Source: Nitrosopumilus sp. (GTDB lineage Archaea > Thermoproteota > Nitrososphaeria > Nitrososphaerales > Nitrosopumilaceae). From it: a stretch of DNA of 64,000 nucleotides. The notes beneath the pieces were generated by a model, which saw only the letters and a program-made list of their open reading frames with translations, did not search any database and was not told where the DNA came from. The translations under genes and the position numbers were made by a program. Location: contig OZ245040.1 of the NCBI GenBank assembly GCA_965224195.1, positions 1,632,001 through 1,696,000 on the forward strand. The letters run 5' to 3'. How positions within the stretch are numbered: position 1 is the first letter of the stretch; the number at the start of each line of letters is the position of its first letter. This document shows, one piece after another, positions 4,979 to 61,515 of the stretch.

Positions 4979-5034
4979 TCTCTTCTGATTTCTAAATTGA
5001 TCTTAATAATAATTTAATTTTCAGATTCCGTAAT

Positions 5035-7036: not shown

Positions 7037-7992
7037 CAACTCATCTCAAAACAGATCATTTAGTGAATAATTGATGATCTATGAACAACAATATCTCAAA
7101 TCAATTCATGAAATTCAAAGAATTGACAGGCAAACAGTGGGAAATGATGGAATCATGTGTTCCTCCACCTGCAAAAACTGGCAGGCCAAGAGATGCAGAC
7201 AGAAAAATCATCAACGGAATCATTTATGTTCTGACAACTGGATGCAGATGTGATGACATGCCAAAAAAATACGGCGATGACTCCACTGCAAACAGGAGAT
7301 TAAACTCTTGGCAGCAGAAAGGAATCTGGAAAAAGATTCTCAAATGTATAACTGCATCTGCAAACAAATCAGGCAAGCTAAACCTACAAAAGATATCAGT
7401 TGACTCATCATCAATTCCTGCCAAAAAAGGGAGAGATGTCATAGGATTTGACGGATTCAAGAAAATAACAGGCACAAAAATACATGTTGCAGCAAGTAAA
7501 AGAAAGAGCTAAAGAAAGACAAAAAATACAAGAAAATAACAGGCACAAAAATACATGTTGCAGCAGGGCAAAACGGCTTGCCAGTATCAATTGTGTGCAG
7601 TCCTGCAAATATTCATGACAGTACAAAATTCATTGACGTTATGGAACCTGTTTCAGATTTTGTAGATTGTAATTCCATCAGACAGATTGTATCTTGCTTT
7701 GCAGACAAGGGCTATGATGCAAAGTACATCAGAAATTACCTGAGAGACAGCGGCATTGATTATTGCATTCCATACAAAAAGAATTCAAGGATTATTTTAC
7801 AAGACAACATACAAAATAACGGTTGCAGCAATTACAACAAGACAAGATTTGTTGTAGTGAAGAGATTCCTTGCTTGGCTGAAGAATGGATCTCATAGGAC
7901 AGGAATCAGATACGAAAAGAGCTGTGAGAATTATTTATCATTTGTTTGCTTGGCATCAATTCTGATGTATTGGGGGGTATTGGGATGAGTTG
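7037..7992 (+). mobile_element. IS5-family insertion sequence (copy 2 of family A), transposase interrupted by 71-bp insertion
   Basis: TIRs CAACTCATCTCAAAAC (7037-7052) and GTATTGGGATGAGTTG (7977-7992), 14/16 match. Transposase pieces 7081-7512 and 7578-7988 (VDSS, ADKGYD). Confidence 0.9.
7458..7565. repeat. exact 37-bp direct repeat flanking a unique 34-bp insert
   Basis: CAAGAAAATAACAGGCACAAAAATACATGTTGCAGCA at 7458-7494 and 7529-7565; insert 7495-7528. Confidence 0.95.
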
Positions 7993-21706: not shown

Positions 21707-22701
21707 GTACTTTGTCGAACAAATAACAATCTGATCAACTTTATTTCATAACAATAGCTTTGGATCTCACATTCTGACCATTCTCATGGTTAACTGGAAT
21801 CAATACAATGAAAAACTAGTCAGAAGAGGCGAGATCATAATGTCATTTGATGCTATTGATAACTGGCATAAGGAATTAGAGGTCATGAATCATAATAAAA
21901 GAGGCAGAAAGTCCAGGCTGTCCTGATTCATTCATGAAATTATTGGGTTATGCGAGAATCTATTTTGGACTGCCATTCAGACAAACAGAAGGAATGATAC
22001 GTGCATATTGTAATAGAATTCCAGCAGTTCCTGATTTCACATCAATCCACAAGAGAATAAACAAGCTTGACATCAAAACTGATGATTCCATTGGAGATAA
22101 TAATGAAATCATTTTGGCAATTGACAGCACAGGAATCAAGGTTGCAAACAGGGGCAAATGGATGAGACAGAAATGGCACATGAGGAGAGGATTTCTAAAA
22201 ATCCATGCTGGTGCCGATGTCAAATCAAAGAAAATAGTTTCACTCAAAATAACAGATGATTCATCCCATGATGCTGCACATCTGCCAGAACTGGTACAGC
22301 AGGCATCACAGAAAGGAAATGTAATCAAGGTTCTAGCTGATGGCGCATATGATTCAGAAAATAATTTCTCATATCTATACCACAACACAGATGCACTCCC
22401 TGCAATCAAAGTTAGAAAGACATCATCTCTCAAAACAAAATGTTATCCGAGAAAGAAATCAGTCTTGGCTCAAATGTATAATTTGGATTTGTGGAAGCGC
22501 AGCGTTAGCTATGGGGACAGGTGGATTGCAGAGTGTGTGTTTTCAACATTCAAAAGGATGTTTGGTGAGTATGTCATGGCTCACAAAAGAAAATACATGG
22601 CAAAGGAATTAAAATTAAAAGTCGGGCCGTACAATCTGTTTGCAGGTGCTTGAGGGAATGAAATCAAAAACTAGTTGGAAATGATTTGTTCGACAGAGTA
22701 G
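21707..22701 (+). mobile_element. IS5-family (IS903-like) element (copy 1 of family B)
   Basis: TIRs TACTTTGTCGAACAAAT (21708-21724) and ATTTGTTCGACAGAGTA (22684-22700). Transposase MVNWNQYNEKLVRRG, then a frameshift into 21934-22653 (IDSTG, ADGAYD, RW..E..FS..K). Confidence 0.92.
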
Positions 22702-33529: not shown

Positions 33530-36500
33530 CTATTTCTTTTTCATTATTTCAAAATAATAAACAATGACAGCAAACACAACGACAAAAAATATTATGGAAA
33601 TTATTAGTAATTCACTCATCGATAGTTTAGGTGCAACAGGTTCAGGTGTTGGTTCAGGTGTGTATACAGGTTCAGGTGTGTATACAGGTTCAGGTGTTGG
33701 TTCAGGTGTGTATACAGGTTCAGGTGTTGGTTCAGGTGTATATACAGGTTCAGGTGTTGGTTCAGGTGTTGGTTCAGGTGTTGGTTCAGGTGTTGGTTCA
33801 GGTGTGTATACAGGTTCTGGTGTTAGCTCTGGTGTTGGTTCCGGTGTTGGCTCTGGTGCTCTGACAGATGATGGCCTGTTGTCCCTGCCGACAATGTCCT
33901 TTAACAGTTCATCCAAATTCATATTATCATAATGTACTATGCCAGGCAGTTCCTTCAGTATGATGTGGCCATCACAGTATGCCGCAGCAGATTCTACCTG
34001 TGCCTGTTTTTGTGATTTGTCGTAACTTTTTATCGACATTACATTTTCAGAAAGCATCTCTAAACCCTCAAAGCTAAACGCATATAGAGAGATTGGCACA
34101 TGCACGGACTTGAAAAGATCTTTCATGCTGGCCTGGGATGTCACATCAATGCCAACATTGGATGGATGCCCGTCTAAGACAATGGAGGCGCCAAGGTTGT
34201 CCCCATATGTACCTGCAACTAATACCACATCATTTTCCAGTCCGCACTGGTTGTACAGCAGTAGTATTGGACTCATTGTAAAACCTACAGAGCCGCTGCT
34301 GCTGCCACGGTCAGCAGGCTGTGGTGTAGTAGGTTTTGGTGTGATGGGTTTTGGTGTGATGGGTTTTGGTGGCAAGGCATCCTCTGGTATTTCTTTAGGA
34401 GTGCTGTCAATTACTGCAGTATCTAGTTCAACACTGACTGCATCTTCAATGACAATAGGATCCCTTACGGCAAGTACTAGGCTGTCATCCTTCTTCACCA
34501 CATCTGCACCATCTGATGTTGGAATGTCATCAGCTAGTGACTTGGTGTGCTGCACTGCCGTGCTATCAGGTGTCAAGCTGGTATTCTTTGTCACATCCAC
34601 GCCGTCTGATGTTGGAATATTGTCAGCCAGTGATTTGACATATTGTTTGGTTACAGAGATATCATCTGATGTTGGGATAGTATCAGCTGGTGACTTGGTG
34701 TGCTGTTCTATTACAGCGCCAGGTGTCAAGTTGGTATTCTTTGTTACAGAGATACCATCTGATGTTGGGATAGTATCAGCTAGTGATTTGACATATTGTT
34801 TGGTTACAGAGATATCATCTGATGTTGGGATAGTATCAGCTAGTGACTTGGTGTGCTGTTCTATTACAGCGCCAGGTGTCAAGTTGGTATTCTTTGTTAC
34901 AGAGATACCATCTGATGTTGGGATAGTATCAGCTAGTGATTTGACATATTGTTTGGTTACAGAGATATCATCTGATGTTGGGATAGTATCAGATGGAGAT
35001 ATGGCATACAGTTTCACTACATCTGCATTGTCCCTTGTTGGGATGTCATCAGCTGGAGATATTGCATATAGTTTCACCACATCTGCACCATCTGATGTTG
35101 GGATGTCATCAGATATGGATTTGACATATTGTTTGGTTACAGAGATACCATCAGATGTTGGGATGGTGTCAGCTGCTGAGCTGGCATATAGTTTCACTAC
35201 ATCTGCACCATCTGATGTTGGGATGTCATCAGATATGGATTTGACATATTGTTTGGTTACAGAGATACCATCTGATGTTGGGATGGTGTCAGATGGAGAT
35301 ATGGCATATAGTTTCACCACATCTGCACCATCTGATGTTGGGATGGTGTCAGATATAGATCTAGAGTACCGCTTTACCACATCCGCATCATCTGATGTTG
35401 GGACGATGTCAGATGGAGATATGGCATATAGTTTCACCACATCTGCACCATCTGATGTTGGGATGGTGTCAGCTGCAGATATTGCGTACCGCTTTACCAC
35501 ATCTGCACCATCTGATGTTGGGATGTCATCAGCTGGAGATATTGCATATAGTTTCACCACATCTGCATTGTCCCTTGTTGGGATGTTATCAGATATGGAT
35601 CTAGAGTACCGCTTTACCACATCTGCACCATCTGATGTTGGGATGTCATCAGCTGGAGATATTGCATATAGTTTCACCACATCTGCATTGTCCTTTGTTG
35701 GGATGTCATCAGATATGGATTTGACATATTGTTTGGTTACAGAGATACCATCAGATGTTGGGATGGTGTCAGCTGCTGAGCTGGCATATAGTTTCACTAC
35801 ATCTGCACCATCTGATGTTGGGATGTCATCAGATATGGATTTGACATATTGTTTGGTTACAGAGATACCATCTGATGTTGGGATGGTGTCAGCTGCTGAG
35901 CTGGCATATAGTTTCACTACATCTGCACCATCTGATGTTGGGATGGTGTCAGATATAGATCTAGAGTACCGCTTTACCACATCCGCATCATCTGATGTTG
36001 GAGCTTCGTCAGATGGAGATATGGCATATAGTTTCACCACATCTGCATTGTCCCTTGTTGGGATGTTATCAGATATGGATCTAGAGTACCGCTTTACCAC
36101 ATCTGCACCATCTGATGTTGGAGCTTCGTCAGCTGGAGATATTGCATATAGTTTCACCACATCTGCACCATCTGATGTTGGGATGGTGTCAGCTGCAGAT
36201 ATTGCGTACCGCTTTACCACATCCGCATCATCTGATGTTGGGATGGTGTCAGATGGAGATATGGCATATAGTTTCACCACATCTGCATTGTCCTTTGTTG
36301 GGATGTTATCAGATATGGATTTGACATATTGTTTGGTTACAGAGATACCATCTGATGTTGGGATGGTGTCAGCTGCTGAGCTGGCATATAGTTTCACTAC
36401 ATCTGCACCATCTGATGTTGGGATGTCATCAGATATGGATTTGACATATTGTTTGGTTACAGAGATATCATCAGATGTTGGAGCTTCATCAGCTGGAGAT

Positions 36501-39500
36501 ATGACATATAGTTTCACTACATCTGCATTGTCCCTTGTTGGGATGTCATCAGATATGGATCTAGAGTACCGCTTTACCACATCAACATCATCTGATGTTG
36601 GAGCTTCATCAGCTGGAGATATGGCATATAGTTTCACTACATCTGCATTGTCCCTTGTTGGGATGTTATCAGATATGGATCTAGAGTACCGCTTTACCAC
36701 ATCTGCACCATCTGATGTTGGGATGTCATCAGCTGGAGATATTGCATATAGTTTCACCACATCTGCATTGTCCCTTGTTGGGATGTTATCAGATATGGAT
36801 CTAGAGTACCGCTTTACCACATCTGCACCATCTGATGTTGGGATGTCATCAGCTGGAGATATTGCATATAGTTTCACCACATCTGCATTGTCCCTTGTTG
36901 GGATGTTATCAGATATGGATCTAGAGTACCGCTTTACCACATCTGCACCATCTGATGTTGGGATGTCATCAGCTGGAGATATTGCATATAGTTTCACCAC
37001 ATCTGCACCATCTGATGTTGGGATGTCATCAGCTAGTGATTTGACATATTGTTTGGTTACAGAGATATCATCAGATGTTGGGATGGTGTCAGCTGCTGAG
37101 CTGGCATATAGTTTCACTACATCTGCACCATCTGATGTTGGGATGTCATCAGATATGGATTTGACATATTGTTTGGTTACAGAGATACCATCTGATGTTG
37201 GGATGGTGTCAGATGGAGATATGGCATATAGTTTCACTACATCTGCACCATCTGATGTTGGGATGTCATCAGATATGGATCTAGAGTACCGCTTTACCAC
37301 ATCCGCATCATCTGATGTTGGAGCTTCGTCAGATGGAGATATGGCATATAGTTTCACTACATCTGCATTGTCCCTTGTTGGGATGTTATCAGATATGGAT
37401 CTAGAGTACCGCTTTACCACATCTGCACCATCTGATGTTGGAGCTTCGTCAGCTGGAGATATTGCATATAGTTTCACCACATCTGCATTGTCCCTTGTTG
37501 GGATGTTATCAGATATGGATCTAGAGTACCGCTTTACCACATCTGCACCATCTGATGTTGGGATGTCATCAGCTGGAGATATTGCATATAGTTTCACCAC
37601 ATCTGCATTGTCCTTTGTTGGGATGTTATCAGATATGGATTTGACATATTGTTTGGTTACAGAGATATCATCAGATGTTGGGATGGTGTCAGCTGCTGAG
37701 CTGGCATATAGTTTCACTACATCTGCACCATCTGATGTTGGGATGTCATCAGATATGGATTTGACATATTGTTTGGTTACAGAGATACCATCTGATGTTG
37801 GGATGGTGTCAGCTGCTGAGCTGGCATATAGTTTCACCACATCTGCACCATCTGATGTTGGGATGTCATCAGATATGGATCTAGAGTACCGCTTTACCAC
37901 ATCTGCACCATCTGATGTTGGAGCTTCGTCAGATGGAGATATGGCATATAGTTTCACCACATCTGCATTGTCCCTTGTTGGGATGTTATCAGATATGGAT
38001 CTAGAGTACCGCTTTACCACATCTGCACCATCTGATGTTGGAGCTTCGTCAGCTGGAGATATGGCATATAGTTTCACCACATCTGCACCATCTGATGTTG
38101 GGATGGTGTCAGCTGCAGATATTGCGTACCGCTTTACCACATCCGCATCATCTGATGTTGGGATGGTGTCAGATGGAGATATGGCATATAGTTTCACCAC
38201 ATCTGCATTGTCCTTTGTTGGGATGTTATCAGATATGGATTTGACATATTGTTTGGTTACAGAGATACCATCTGATGTTGGGATGGTGTCAGCTGCTGAG
38301 CTGGCATATAGTTTCACTACATCTGCACCATCTGATGTTGGGATGTCATCAGATATGGATTTGACATATTGTTTGGTTACAGAGATATCATCAGATGTTG
38401 GAGCTTCGTCAGATGGAGATATGGCATATAGTTTCACTACATCTGCATTGTCCCTTGTTGGGATGTTATCAGATATGGATCTAGAGTACCGCTTTACCAC
38501 ATCAACATCATCTGATGTTGGAGCTTCATCAGCTGGAGATATGACATATAGTTTCACTACATCTGCATTGTCCCTTGTTGGGATGTCATCAGATATGGAT
38601 CTAGAGTACCGCTTTACCACATCAACATCATCTGATGTTGGAGCTTCGTCAGATGGAGATATGGCATATAGTTTCACCACATCTGCATTGTCCCTTGTTG
38701 GGATGTTATCAGATATGGATCTAGAGTACCGCTTTACCACATCTGCACCATCTGATGTTGGGATGTCATCAGCTGGAGATATTGCATATAGTTTCACCAC
38801 ATCTGCATTGTCCCTTGTTGGGATGTTATCAGATATGGATCTAGAGTACCGCTTTACCACATCTGCACCATCTGATGTTGGGATGTCATCAGCTGGAGAT
38901 ATTGCATATAGTTTCACCACATCTGCACTGTCCCTTGTTGGGATGTCATCAGATATGGATTTGACATATTGTTTGGTTACAGAGATATCATCAGATGTTG
39001 GGATGGTGTCAGCTGCTGAGCTGGCATATAGTTTCACTACATCTGCACCATCTGATGTTGGGATGTCATCAGATATGGATTTGACATATTGTTTGGTTAC
39101 AGAGATACCATCTGATGTTGGGATGGTGTCAGCTGCTGAGCTGGCATATAGTTTCACTACATCTGCACCATCTGATGTTGGGATGTCATCAGATATGGAT
39201 CTAGAGTACCGCTTTACCACATCTGCACCATCTGATGTTGGAGCTTCGTCAGATGGAGATATGGCATATAGTTTCACTACATCTGCATTGTCCCTTGTTG
39301 GGATGTTATCAGATATGGATCTAGAGTACCGCTTTACCACATCTGCACCATCTGATGTTGGAGCTTCGTCAGCTGGAGATATTGCATATAGTTTCACCAC
39401 ATCTGCATTGTCCCTTGTTGGGATGTCATCAGATATGGATCTAGAGTACCGCTTTACCACATCTGCACCATCTGATGTTGGGATGTCATCAGATATGGAT

Positions 39501-42207
39501 CTAGAGTACCGCTTTACCACATCTGCACCATCTGATGTTGGGATGTCATCAGCTGGAGATATTGCATATAGTTTCACCACATCTGCACTGTCCCTTGTTG
39601 GGATGTCATCAGATATGGATTTGACATATTGTTTGGTTACAGAGATATCATCAGATGTTGGGATGGTGTCAGCTGCTGAGCTGGCATATAGTTTCACTAC
39701 ATCTGCACCATCTGATGTTGGGATGTCATCAGATATGGATTTGACATATTGTTTGGTTACAGAGATACCATCTGATGTTGGGATGGTGTCAGATGGAGAT
39801 ATGGCATATAGTTTCACCACATCTGCACCATCTGATGTTGGGATGTCATCAGATGGAGATATTGCATATAGTTTCACCACATCTGCATTGTCCCTTGTTG
39901 GGATGTTATCAGATATGGATCTAGAGTACCGCTTTACCACATTGACTGCGTCCTTTGATGGAGCTGCATCAGATGGAGATATTGCATATAGTTTCACTAC
40001 ATCTGCACCATCTGATGTTGGGATGGTGTCAGCTGCAGATATTGCGTACCGCTTTACCACATTGACTGCGTCCTTTGATGGAGCTGCATCAGATACCCAT
40101 TGAAGAAGCTCAAAAGGTTGCAGGATCTCCACATCAACTGCGTCCTTTGATGGAGCTGCATCAGATACCCATTGAAGAAGCTCAAAAGGTTGCAGGACCT
40201 CCACATCAACTGCGTCCTTTGATGGAGCTGCATCAGATACCCATTGAAGAAGCTCAAAAGGTTGCAGGACCTCCACATCAACTGCGTCCTTTGATGAAAC
40301 TGCATCAGATACCCATTGAAGAAGCTCAAAAGGTTGCAGGACCTCCACATCAACTGCGTCCTTTGATGGAGCTGCATCAGATACCGAGCTGGTATATAGT
40401 TTTACCACATCCGCATCATCTGATGTTGGAGCTGTATCAGATGGAGATATTGCATGCCGCTTTACCACATCCGCATCATCTGATGTTGGAGCTGTATCAG
40501 ATGGAGATATTGCATACCGCTTTACCACATCCGCATCATCTGATGTTGGAGCTGTATCAGATGTAGACATGGCATGATCACCACTTCGATACAAAACAAC
40601 CAGAGTAGTAGATTCATCATTTAAATTTCCGCTTAGGTCACTAACAGCTCCTGGTGACATGAAAAGATACCTTAAATCATGTAAAATTAATTCAAGTAGT
40701 TGCTTCTTTTTTATTGTGATTGATAAATCCGTACCATTACCAACTTTATTTATCTTAGCCTTGGAAAGTACAACGTCATTACCTTTCCCATCACCCAAAA
40801 ACATTTTTGACAAATCTGTCTTGTCAATATGTATCGGCTCATCAAATTTGATTCCAAGAGTCCTAGTTGTTTTATCTAATTTTACAGGGTATGGCAACTT
40901 GTGAACATCAATTATATATACATCAGTATCAGAATCAGATGATGTAACTATCGCATAAATTTTATCACCAATTTCAAATGTACTGGCTTTTGCCTGATTA
41001 GGAATTGTTGTTACAACACTTACAAGTAATGGTTCATATGGATTACTCACATCAAATGTTGACACAGCATCAGATGCAGTAACTATCGCATAAATTTTAT
41101 CACCAATTTCAGATATATTGACTCCACTTAGATGATTAAAAGAAAGATAATATTCATTATATATCGCGTCTACATGTTTAGGTTTTTTCGGGTTACTCAC
41201 ATCAATTATTGACGCAGCATCATCATCAGATGCAGTAACTATCGCATAAATTTTATCACCAATTTCAAATGTTGCAACTCCGCTTGCACCACCAGTTGCA
41301 GGCGTATAACTGGTTATCTCACGTACTAGTTTAGGTTTTTTCGGGTTACTCACATCAATTATTGACGCAGCATCATCATCAGATGCAGTAACTATCGCAT
41401 AAATTTTATCACCAATTTCAAATGTTGCAACTCCACTTGCGCCACCAAGGCTGTTAAACTTTTTTGGATTAGCAACAAAACTAGCAGGAGGGTTTACTGG
41501 TGTTCGTTCATCTATTGCAGATCCTATATGCTGCAAATCTTTGGGATTAGAAACATCAAATAAATAAATACCGCTTTCACGACCCTCATAACATTGTTTA
41601 GTAATTTGATTACAAGTCCTACTAGGGATACCCTCGTCGTGAACTGAAAATATTGCATACTGTTTAGATTTGATTTTAAAAATATTGACATCAGTGAATT
41701 GTGGGTAAGGGTATACGCCATAATCTATTTCATGCTGCTTGATAATAGTTGGCTTTTTCAGGTTTGTTATATCCACTGTAAATATATTATCTTCATCATT
41801 CAAGCCCGCTAACGCATAGATGTTATTTTCAATATAATAGACTGCAACTACCCCCCCCCCCAAATCACTGTTGTTATTGCCAGGAAACATCATCGTACTA
41901 ACAAACAAAGGGTTCAGAGGATCACTGACATCATAAAAAATCAAAGATTTGCGATTGGTATCTTCTACACCAATATTTGCAGTTAACAAAAGGGCATATG
42001 TTTTCTTGTTTATGTCATCAGTAACTATTGCAACATCATTTACATGCAAAACATTGTGTGATAAAATAATTTCACTAACAAAATCCTCATGCGTTATTAT
42101 GGATGGCTTTTTTATGTCAGTAGAGACTTGGGCGTTTACATCAATTACACCATAACTTAATACGACGACGACGGTAATAAAAAACAGAATTTAATTCTAG
42201 AAAACAT
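33530..42207 (-). CDS. giant cell-surface protein: signal peptide, LVIVD-type beta-propeller, ~100 tandem 20-24-aa repeats, Pro-rich linkers, C-terminal TM anchor
   Basis: ORF 33530-42049 is open upstream to about 42190. One added base joins it to ATG 42207 (MFSRIK..FFITVVVVLSYGVIDVNAQ). IIDVSNP repeats; EPTP linker; TM plus KKK at the C-terminus. Confidence 0.88.
33637..33860. repeat. 12/18-bp tandem repeats encoding the EPTP/EPVYTP linker
   Basis: (GGTTCAGGTGTT)n interspersed with GGTTCAGGTGTGTATACA. Confidence 0.9.
34490..40565. repeat. coding tandem array: about 86 consecutive 60-bp units plus longer variant units at both ends
   Basis: 60-nt lines align in register from about 34920 to 40080; four 69-bp units at about 40090-40380; conserved core CATCTGATGTTGG. 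Confidence 0.97.
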
Positions 42208-60443: not shown

Positions 60444-61515
60444 CTACTCTGTCGAACAAATCATTTCCAACTAATGATTAATTTCATTTCCCTCAAACAC
60501 TTGCAAACAGATTGTACAGCTCGACTTTTAATTCCAATTCCTTTACCATGTATTTTCTTTTGTGAGCCATGACATACTCACCAGACATCCTTTTGAATGT
60601 TGAAAACACACACTCTACAATCCACCTGTCCCCATAGCTAACGCTGCGCTTCCACAAATCCAAATTATACATTTGAGCCAAAACTGATTTCTTTCGGAGA
60701 TAACATTTTGTTTTGAGAGATGATGTCTTTCTAACTTTGATTGCAGGCAGTGCATTTGTGTTGTGGTACAGATATGAAAAGTTGTTTTCTGAATCATATG
60801 CGCCATCAGCTAGAGCCTTGGTTACATTTCCTTTGTACAATGCTTGTTGTACTAGTTCTGGCAGATGTGCCAGGCATCATGGAATGAATCATCAATTATT
60901 TTCAGTGAAACTATTTTCTTTGATTTCACATCTGCACCAACATGGATTTTCAAGAATCCTCTTCTCATGTGCCATTTCTGTCGCATCCATTCACCTCTGT
61001 CTGCAACTGGTAAATAGACCTTCACCACATAGTGTTTCTAATTGCCATTTCTGTCGCATCCATTCACCTCTGTCTGCAACCTTGATTCCAGTGCTGTCAA
61101 TTGCTAAAATGATTTCATTGTTATCTCCAATGGAATTATCAATTTTGATGTCAAGCTTGTTTATTCTCTTGTGAATTGATGTGAAATCAGGAACTGCTGG
61201 AATTCTATTACAGTATGCACGAATCATTCCTTCTGTTTGTCTGAATGGCAGTCCAAAATATGCTCTGGCATAACCCAATAATTTCATAAACGATTCAGGA
61301 TAGCCTGGACTTTCTACCTCTTTTGTTGTGATTCATGACCTCCAGTTCTTTATGCCAGTTCTCAATGACATCAAATGACATGATGTTCTTCACCCCTTCT
61401 GACTAGTTTTTCATTGTATTGACTCCATTGTACCATGAAAATAATCAGAATGTGAGATCCAAATCTATTGTGGTGTAATGATATTGATCAGATTGTTGTT
61501 TGTTAGACAAAGTAC
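60444..61515 (-). mobile_element. IS5-family (IS903-like) element (copy 2 of family B), broken by a 73-bp insertion and frameshifts
   Basis: Same ends as 21707-22701; ORFs 60991-61287 and 60493-60840 nearly identical to 21934-22653. Confidence 0.92.
60970..61080. repeat. exact 38-bp direct repeat flanking a unique 35-bp insert
   Basis: TGCCATTTCTGTCGCATCCATTCACCTCTGTCTGCAAC at 60970-61007 and 61043-61080; insert 61008-61042. Confidence 0.95.

Follow-up and report, generated by a model that had tools for sequence, protein, structure and literature searches.

We analyzed a stretch of 64,000 nucleotides (nt) from the genome of Nitrosopumilus sp. (assembly GCA_965224195.1, contig OZ245040.1, positions 1,632,001 to 1,696,000; referred to here as the window, G000:C1:1632001-1696000, with C1 coordinates counted over the whole contig). 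Inside the transposase gene of an insertion sequence (IS) of the IS5 family, a segment of 38 nt was found to be exactly duplicated around a unique insert of 35 nt. [quoted passage not shown] The agency of Cas1-Cas2 is what we infer from sequence; the geometry, the empty sites, the uniqueness of the unit, a ruler matching the host arrays, spacer-like inserts and three resident cas1-cas2 modules are directly established. The features concerned are the following (window coordinates; ORF, open reading frame; aa, amino acids).

60445..61514, minus strand (transposase gene): IS5-family insertion sequence hosting the scar; ORF pieces match DDE_Tnp_1_5 (52.1 bits) and DDE_Tnp_1 (27.4 bits) in Pfam, and terminal inverted repeats were read directly
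60970..61007, no strand: duplicated target segment (pseudo-repeat), copy 1, 38 nt; exact direct repeat whose minus strand starts with GTTGCAG
61008..61042, no strand: unique insert (candidate ectopic spacer), 35 nt; single in the window, no second match in the genome, length within the canonical spacer range of 32-48 nt
61043..61080, no strand: duplicated target segment, copy 2, 38 nt; 100% identical to copy 1 and present once in paralogous IS copies
21934..22653, plus strand: intact paralogous transposase ORF of 239 aa serving as empty site (ORF list); the alignment leaves a precise 73-nt gap at the scar position

The two copies of the repeat start 73 nt apart, and 38 nt is the full exact length of the repeat, the bases adjoining each copy being unlike. 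Even when up to three mismatches were allowed, the 38-mer had no further occurrence in the window, and 100 shuffles yielded no match at all. The peptide VADRGEWMRQKW is found in both minus-strand ORF pieces. The initial annotation, made from the letters of the window alone, had described a duplication of 37-38 bp around a unique insert of 35-36 bp, and the exact lengths of 38 and 35 nt agree with it. A blastn-short search (E<=0.01) returned no other match of the insert in the genome, and its comparison with the canonical spacers gave nothing past 9-nt chance words. The unit is not a functional array: it has two copies and one insert, and the full-length identity of the duplicated segments to the three CRISPR repeats of the genome is not above that of random sites.

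Empty sites are provided by other copies of the same IS. The inverted ends of the host element lie at 60445 and 61514, and its site is covered by 18 IS copies, 17 of which align to a scar-free query without a break, at 74-96% identity, and these 17 contain the 38-mer once and lack the insert; the target copy alone is interrupted. The copy at about 22140-22180 that had been pointed out as insert-free proved to lie within the intact 239-aa ORF listed above, and a further copy at C1:920200-921250 also aligns with a clean 73-nt gap at the scar. Both duplicated segments carry a C where the paralogs have a T, so this substitution is older than the duplication. The transposase gene of the host copy is broken twice: besides the 73-nt scar, it has a small indel near 60870, where two extra bases cause an additional frameshift.

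The initial annotation had also reported a first scar of similar length (71 versus 73 bp added) in an unrelated IS. It was recovered as an exact 37-nt repeat around a 34-nt insert with a period of 71:

7458..7494, no strand: first copy of the duplicated segment in the first scar, 37 nt; the host is another IS (DUF4096 and DDE_Tnp_1), and the paralog at C1:1227265-1227312 has the segment once
7495..7528, no strand: first scar, insert, 34 nt, with no match elsewhere in the genome
7529..7565, no strand: first scar, duplicated segment copy 2, 37 nt, an exact copy of 7458..7494

These two scars are the sole short-range repeats of their kind in the window, the remaining repeat families being tandem coding repeats. 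GTTGCAG, which was said to occur in both duplicated segments, is indeed present, on the plus strand in the first scar and on the minus strand, at the very end of the segment, in the second.

The genome (2.07 Mb, near-complete, 33.6% guanine plus cytosine, GC) contains many more units of this geometry. Contig C1 was scanned for direct repeats with a period of 30-200, with mismatches tolerated and the three CRISPR arrays removed, and a direct repeat with no second repeat within 600 bp was classed as a singleton. A total of 54 singletons were obtained, and 33 of them have periods of 70-76, that is, 7 of the 171 possible periods (p=3.5e-32). The counts for periods 70, 71, 72, 73, 74, 75 and 76 are 2, 4, 7, 10, 7, 2 and 1, respectively, and the remaining 21 singletons are spread over 33-192. 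The final set consists of the 34 singletons of period 69-76 minus the one at C1:1626225, giving 33 scars. The unit at C1:1626225 was dropped: its 22-nt repeat is a degenerate copy of the 36-nt CRISPR repeat, and the locus is a degenerate two-copy remnant of this type I-G repeat with a period of 74, distant from the array.

In the 33 scars, the duplications measure 30, 32, 34, 35 (two scars), 36 (eight), 37 (nine), 38 (six), 39 (three), 42 and 43 nt, 28 of them thus being of 35-39 nt, and all inserts measure 32-39 nt. The duplicated pairs are identical in 22 scars and have one or two mismatches in 11, and every duplicated segment and every insert is distinct in sequence. Single-copy target segments are also implied by paralog coordinates at four more scars (1639458, 1892823, 1973078 and 1541050). 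The number of 33, or about 16 fixed scars per Mb in this genome, is a lower bound, as the isolation filter left out units of the same geometry at 146508, 912527, 1090869, 1326527, 912673 and 1090832-1091014. The earlier suggestion of a ruler-type integrase acting outside a CRISPR array is strongly supported by the genome-wide clustering of periods, which equal the period of the host arrays. The three arrays are:

C1:707205-713740: array A1, 90 repeats of 36 nt, spacer mode 36-37 nt
C1:941990-946529: array A2, 69 repeats of 30 nt, spacer mode 36-37 nt
C1:1457181-1466783: array A3, 132 repeats of 37 nt, spacer mode 35-36 nt

The periods of A1 and A3 are 72-74, the same as those of the scars, and the canonical spacers of 32-48 nt have modes of 35-37 nt overall. 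Three Cas1 genes were found, each beside a Cas2 gene and an array, and no Cas1 homologue was found outside the CRISPR-cas loci of the genome. The A1 module is of type I-G and contains a Cas4g/Cas1g fusion, Cas2, Cas3g and Csb2; its profile scores are 714.7 bits for NF049935 (cut-off 560), 698.2 for TIGR02621 (cut-off 400) and 253.5 for TIGR02165 (cut-off 45). The A3 module contains Cas7, Cas5, Cas3, Cas1, Cas2 and Cas4, with I-B-like matches below the subtype cut-offs, and the A2 module contains Cas4, Cas1b (436.5 bits, cut-off 304.1) and Cas2. Relatives of the Cas4/Cas1 fusion in genome_contigs come mostly from Nitrosopumilus or other Nitrosopumilaceae, with best-segment identity ranging from 65% down to 39% in the most distant, bacterial, one.

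The inserts also behave like spacers. Eight of the 33 match another place in the same chromosome, seven near full length and one partially:

scar 886994: self match over 35/35 nt
scar 911485: self match over 38/38 nt
scar 173581: self match over 36/37 nt
scar 1892823: self match over 36/37 nt
scar 690211: self match over 38/39 nt
scar 898236: self match over 35/36 nt
scar 907258: self match over 34/36 nt
scar 1277616: self match over 28/34 nt

In the seven near-full-length cases, the similarity ends at the insert borders, which means that these inserts are discrete cut-outs of 35-39 nt pasted elsewhere. Mapping of inserts to their sources was thus successful for eight scars within the host's own chromosome, but not for either of the two scars in the window, whose inserts gave no other match in the genome. 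Among 288 canonical spacers, matches beyond the arrays never exceed 24 nt, and 23 spacers have only chance matches of 16-24 nt; the proportion of self-derived sequences, 8/33 in ectopic inserts versus 0/288 in arrays, differs with p=5e-9 (Fisher's exact test). The GC content of the inserts (40.2%) is close to that of array spacers (40.4-42.3%) and above the genome value of 33.6%. These data would fit an integrase that sometimes captures host DNA: self-targeting would purge such spacers from arrays, and at ectopic sites they would be harmless and escape this autoimmunity filter because, between pseudo-repeats, they are predicted not to be expressed as CRISPR RNA (crRNA).

Comparison with relatives extended the empty-site evidence to single-copy genes. 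At the scar in a short-chain dehydrogenase gene (C1:173581), relatives with 76-93% identity have the 36-mer once, with an exact 73-nt gap in G015, G017 and G003, and at the scar in a DsbA-like gene (C1:886994) the site is empty in five of five relatives. Cas1 was found in 24 of the 61 sampled genomes of the genus, and the singleton scan was applied to parts of three other genomes:

G051: a single Cas1, the I-G fusion, and an array of 36-nt repeats that is almost the same as A1; 1.2 of 2.39 Mb scanned; 13 of 31 singletons at periods 72-74
G010: no Cas1 and no array seen; 1.2 of 1.36 Mb scanned; 0 of 13 singletons at periods 71-76 (one at 70)
G007: no Cas1 hit, a real CRISPR array; 0.4 Mb scanned; 4 of 7 singletons at periods 71-75

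Of the 13 in G051, five represent a single unit located in a repeated element, which leaves nine distinct events. The five copies (G051:C1:307648, 457651, 481088, 562505 and 677192) share the same 39-nt duplication and 33-nt insert, with a period of 72 and in frame; the unit is either a scar spread by later transposition or a natural coding repeat. As for G007, one of its four singletons is a mini-array of a genuine CRISPR repeat and the other three are diverged candidate scars with 93-97% identity, which may record past activity. Its real array at 885155-885511 ruled this genome out as a Cas1-free control. The region G007:C1:883264-885540 holds that array (period 71-72), which may be an orphan array, and a two-repeat unit, with diverged candidate scars nearby. 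In four other genomes (G044, G067, G006 and G060), Cas1 matches were found in open frames of 409-442 aa that score below the CRISPR-linked ones and may be of the casposon type.

How such a scar could arise follows the scheme of normal spacer acquisition. A Cas1-Cas2 complex loaded with a prespacer of about 35 nt would make two strand-transfer attacks on opposite strands, about 36-38 bp apart, in the IS transposase gene instead of the leader-proximal CRISPR repeat. Filling of the two single-stranded gaps would then duplicate 38 bp and leave target copy, spacer and target copy, just as the repeat is duplicated in normal acquisition. The type I-G Cas4/Cas1 fusion is the most likely module, with somewhat better than even odds, since G051, which has only that module, bears the same scars; the I-G module alone seems to be sufficient there. 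A contribution of the A3 module is possible, and A2-type events seem to be rare, with one candidate at 912673. An attempt to assign the scars to the 36-nt or the 37-nt array failed, since the two arrays do not differ in period and the borders are blurred by chance extension.

Site choice may have been helped by a short border motif. Because motif discovery with free orientation and offset was over-fitted, an a priori comparison with the real repeats was used instead. At one scar border, the similarity to the initial 10 nt of the repeats in the orientation written here, GCTTCAATGG for A1 and GTTTCAATCC for A3 (reverse complement), is higher than at 5000 random sites (Mann-Whitney U test, p=6e-4 for A1 and 2e-3 for A3). 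This corresponds to the spacer-side end of the repeats, ATTGAAGC and ATTGAAAC, respectively. The orientation of A1 is supported by its cas1 gene, which adjoins the opposite end of the array, and by the I-G repeat of Methanosarcina barkeri, whose spacer-side end, as quoted in PMC10504553, also finishes with ATTGAAGC. Within 2 nt of a border, the motif G-Y-T-N-C-A-R was found in ten of the 33 scars versus 2.3% of random sites. It is carried by both scars of the window, at offset 0 in the target, and accounts for the GTTGCAG noticed before; in this motif, the proposed site choice would make use of a resemblance to the spacer-side repeat end. In the alignment of the duplicated segments to the native repeats, as proposed in the initial annotation, a resemblance was seen at one border and not over the full length, where similarity is not above random.

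For read support, four of the five public sequencing runs containing part of the stretch were examined, and each of them offers short contigs at this multi-copy IS. In every one of the four, the insert bin (61003-61033) is covered, and in runs X1 and X2 its depth is a fraction of that of the flanks, as expected if one of many IS copies carries the insert. Run X4, which belongs to another study, has a 151-nt contig that matches 60889-61039 with 0 differences and crosses the first junction, extending 32 nt into the insert. A contig of run X5 enters the insert by 16 nt only and was not counted as bridging, and contigs that start at 61043 with other upstream sequence are empty paralogs.

Several observations weigh against an origin of these units in Cas1-Cas2 integration. 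The duplications spread over 30-43 nt, which is looser than a strict 36- or 37-nt ruler. No candidate protospacer of the target insert turned up, either elsewhere in the genome or as an exact 35-mer in viral_contigs, and the flanks of the eight self-derived sources share no common trinucleotide in either orientation that could serve as a protospacer adjacent motif (PAM). The other scar border and the full length of the duplicated segments have no significant similarity to the CRISPR repeats (p=0.07-0.58 for the full length), and G-Y-T-N-C-A-R, present in only ten of the 33 scars, was defined post hoc. At site 739057, one of the three scars compared with relatives, the rightward flank lacks conservation, which makes the empty-site comparison uninformative. 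G010 is a streamlined genome with 1.1% multi-copy DNA, whose lack of scars may reflect selection, making it a weak negative control, and G007, with no Cas1 hit, yet has three diverged candidate scars in 400 kb. With regard to read support, the crossing of the first junction by the X4 contig stands, but the second junction is bridged by none of the contigs listed, none of which spans the full 901-nt stretch, and the runs with the best coverage may be the source sample of the window itself.

The latter points would suit an artefact of assembly or polishing, as would the multi-copy nature of the IS and the fragmentation of the public contigs. We consider this extremely unlikely, because a contig from another study crosses the first junction without a difference and the insert has depth in all four runs, and because an artefact would have to account for 33 sites with a common ruler, eight inserts copied from distant loci, and the same pattern in an independently assembled species (G051). 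The missing PAM and target protospacer, the candidate scars of G007, and some units with longer duplications (42-57 nt) and short inserts could instead be taken to indicate an origin unrelated to CRISPR, such as a very small mobile element that makes a very long target-site duplication, templated insertion in break repair, or replication slippage. A mobile element is at odds with 33 inserts that are all different and have no common ends, and templated insertion with the fact that inserts of known source are sharp-bordered cut-outs of 35-39 nt rather than local templated copies. Moreover, the resident arrays have the same period and the same lengths of both components, the GC content of the inserts is that of canonical spacers, G007 does possess a CRISPR array, the Cas1 homologues found in the Nitrosopumilus genome all lie in CRISPR-cas loci, and Cas1 of the casposon type makes duplications that are much shorter. 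Taken with these points, an origin outside CRISPR is highly improbable, and integration by Cas1-Cas2 remains the preferred interpretation.

Whether such integration is directed at insertion sequences is a separate matter. The initial annotation had offered two readings, neutral off-target adaptation kept only in dispensable DNA, or a route by which the spacer-integration machinery disables IS elements or seeds new arrays. In favor of the second, both scars in the window lie within transposase genes, three of the eight self-derived inserts stem from multi-copy DNA, and dispersed multi-copy DNA, which makes up 14.8% of C1, is touched by nine of the 33 scars (p=0.045). When both flanks were required to lie in multi-copy DNA, the enrichment was gone (6/33, p=0.36), and this mild excess is also what survivorship in dispensable DNA predicts. 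The other 24 scars are in single-copy DNA, including the short-chain dehydrogenase gene at C1:173581 (adh_short, 186.5 bits) the DsbA/thioredoxin-like gene at C1:886994, in which the 72-nt unit is in frame, and a weak MFS-like match. Only one of the 18 copies of the host IS has been hit, and that copy has another frameshift. The statement that scars lie in transposase ORFs and not in core genes thus holds for the window but not genome-wide, where the dehydrogenase, the DsbA-like gene and other single-copy genes are affected. A Pfam search of the ORF fragments at scars named 10 of 27 (four from the two IS elements) and gave no match for 17; among the weaker matches, MFS_1 and SHOCT are below the cut-off, and TatA_B_E and fn3 are barely above it.

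The distribution of the scars relative to coding sequence agrees with the first of the two readings. After in-silico excision of the unit, 14 of the 33 scar sites fall in an open frame of at least 150 aa; for 20000 random sites the share is 73.5% (p=1.6e-4), and the median open frame measures 128 aa at scars versus 295.5 aa at random sites. This depletion from long ORFs indicates that scars persist where their cost is small. Periods that are multiples of three are not preferred (13, 10 and 10 scars for the three classes). The best reading is that the scars are mutational by-products that have survived where little harm was done, and not a defence aimed at IS, which is in line with neutral off-target adaptation as originally suggested. 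The seeding of new functional arrays would be favored by the locus C1:1090832-1091014, which looks twice hit. However, the register is shifted at this sole re-used locus, none of the scars has expanded into a regular array, and the pseudo-repeats differ from each other and, over their full length, from the CRISPR repeats, so processing by Cas proteins into crRNA is not expected. Neither machinery directed at IS to disable them nor scars as seeds of arrays found support, and we regard both as very unlikely.

Some loci of unusual structure were seen alongside the 33 scars. The unit at C1:1090832-1091014 is nested, with the order A(37) B(38) insert(35) B'(38) A'(37), and looks like a double hit, as if a second integration, in a shifted register, had duplicated the 38-nt spacer of an existing ectopic unit; it suggests that a border, rather than a leader, anchors the enzyme. 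In strain-specific DNA at C1:912527-912768, a pair of scars is separated by 35 bp. The duplication of one is 36 nt long (period 76), and the other, the unit at 912673, has a 30-nt duplication, a 36-nt insert and a period of 66, which is the geometry of the 30-nt array. For the nested unit and the C1:912527/912673 pair, no paralog and no orthologous sequence in five relatives were found. Isolated units at C1:1326359, 923061, 1129510 and 778950 have duplications of 46-57 nt and inserts of 21-35 nt; these may be mis-measured integrations or unrelated. The load of dispersed repeats is unusually high for such archaea in G051 (36% in an 800-kb sample) as well as in G000, compared with G010. Within the window, a very long tandem-repeat region at 33600-41200 contains a 60-nt period in about 93 copies and additional periods of 12/18 and 72 nt, with a raised GC content of about 40-43%, and probably encodes a giant repetitive surface protein.

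The formation of 'neo-CRISPR' units by off-target (non-canonical) spacer integration was reportedly described by Nivala, Shipman and Church in 2018, a study cited in bioRxiv 10.1101/148544 and PMC6698737. Like the Escherichia coli units reported in that study, the scars found here combine a spacer-sized insert, a flanking duplication of non-CRISPR sequence with the length of the resident repeat, and active Cas1-Cas2. According to the citing passage of bioRxiv 10.1101/148544, off-target integration in E. coli needed artificial up-regulation of the acquisition genes, and natural evidence in two other species was 'circumstantial'. Unlike the E. coli case, at least 33 natural events are found here in one archaeal genome, with empty sites and with about a quarter of the inserts self-derived, and the module is of type I-G and/or I-B-like and includes Cas4. 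In vitro, off-target integration has been described for Pyrococcus furiosus (PMC6698737) and Thermotoga profunda. The P. furiosus Cas1-Cas2 likewise made paired integrations one repeat-length apart at non-CRISPR sites sharing a few repeat positions, with G1, T2, T3 and A6 enriched. In that work the targets were plasmids in vitro and the ruler was 30 bp, whereas the present scars are fixed in a chromosome with a ruler of 36-38 bp, and the motif matches the spacer-side repeat end and not the leader-repeat junction.

The host module resembles the type I-G module treated in PMC10504553, with the Cas4g/Cas1g fusion above the NCBIfam cut-off, Cas2, Cas3g, Csb2 and a 36-nt repeat ending in ATTGAAGC. 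The passages of that paper considered here deal with PAM-end processing and directional integration into the array and do not mention off-target events; in our data, no PAM was recognised. Off-target acquisition is one proposed origin of isolated arrays away from cas genes, as stated in a passage of PMC13142298 citing Shmakov et al. 2020. Unlike the isolated or mini arrays of that passage, the units described here keep one spacer and have pseudo-repeats unrelated to the CRISPR repeat, that is, they are scars and not arrays. Keyword searches in a limited literature collection did not bring up scars of this kind for Nitrosopumilus or for type I-G. Off-target integration as such is already known; what is notable here is the number of events, their natural setting and the self-derived inserts.

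In the sources consulted, most observations of off-target integration were made in vitro or in E. coli over-producing Cas1-Cas2. The at least 33 mapped scars, together with a second species (G051) showing the same pattern, offer a natural data set on how Cas1-Cas2 chooses a target in the absence of a leader, on how often host DNA is captured before selection purges self-targeting spacers, and on the mutational damage done by an adaptive immune system to its own genome. In practice, a scar of this sort may be misread as a tiny CRISPR array or as an event specific to IS. It is tentatively proposed, at odds just short of even, that adaptation modules like those of Nitrosopumilus, most likely of type I-G, are promiscuous enough in nature to disrupt genes recurrently, and that ectopic spacers are an unselected sample of what the integrase captures. 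If so, ectopic spacers would preserve a capture record of the integrase in which about one quarter is host DNA, versus none in 288 array spacers, and these genomes would hold a readable record of integrase specificity, of the choice between self and non-self at acquisition, and of the mutational cost of CRISPR.

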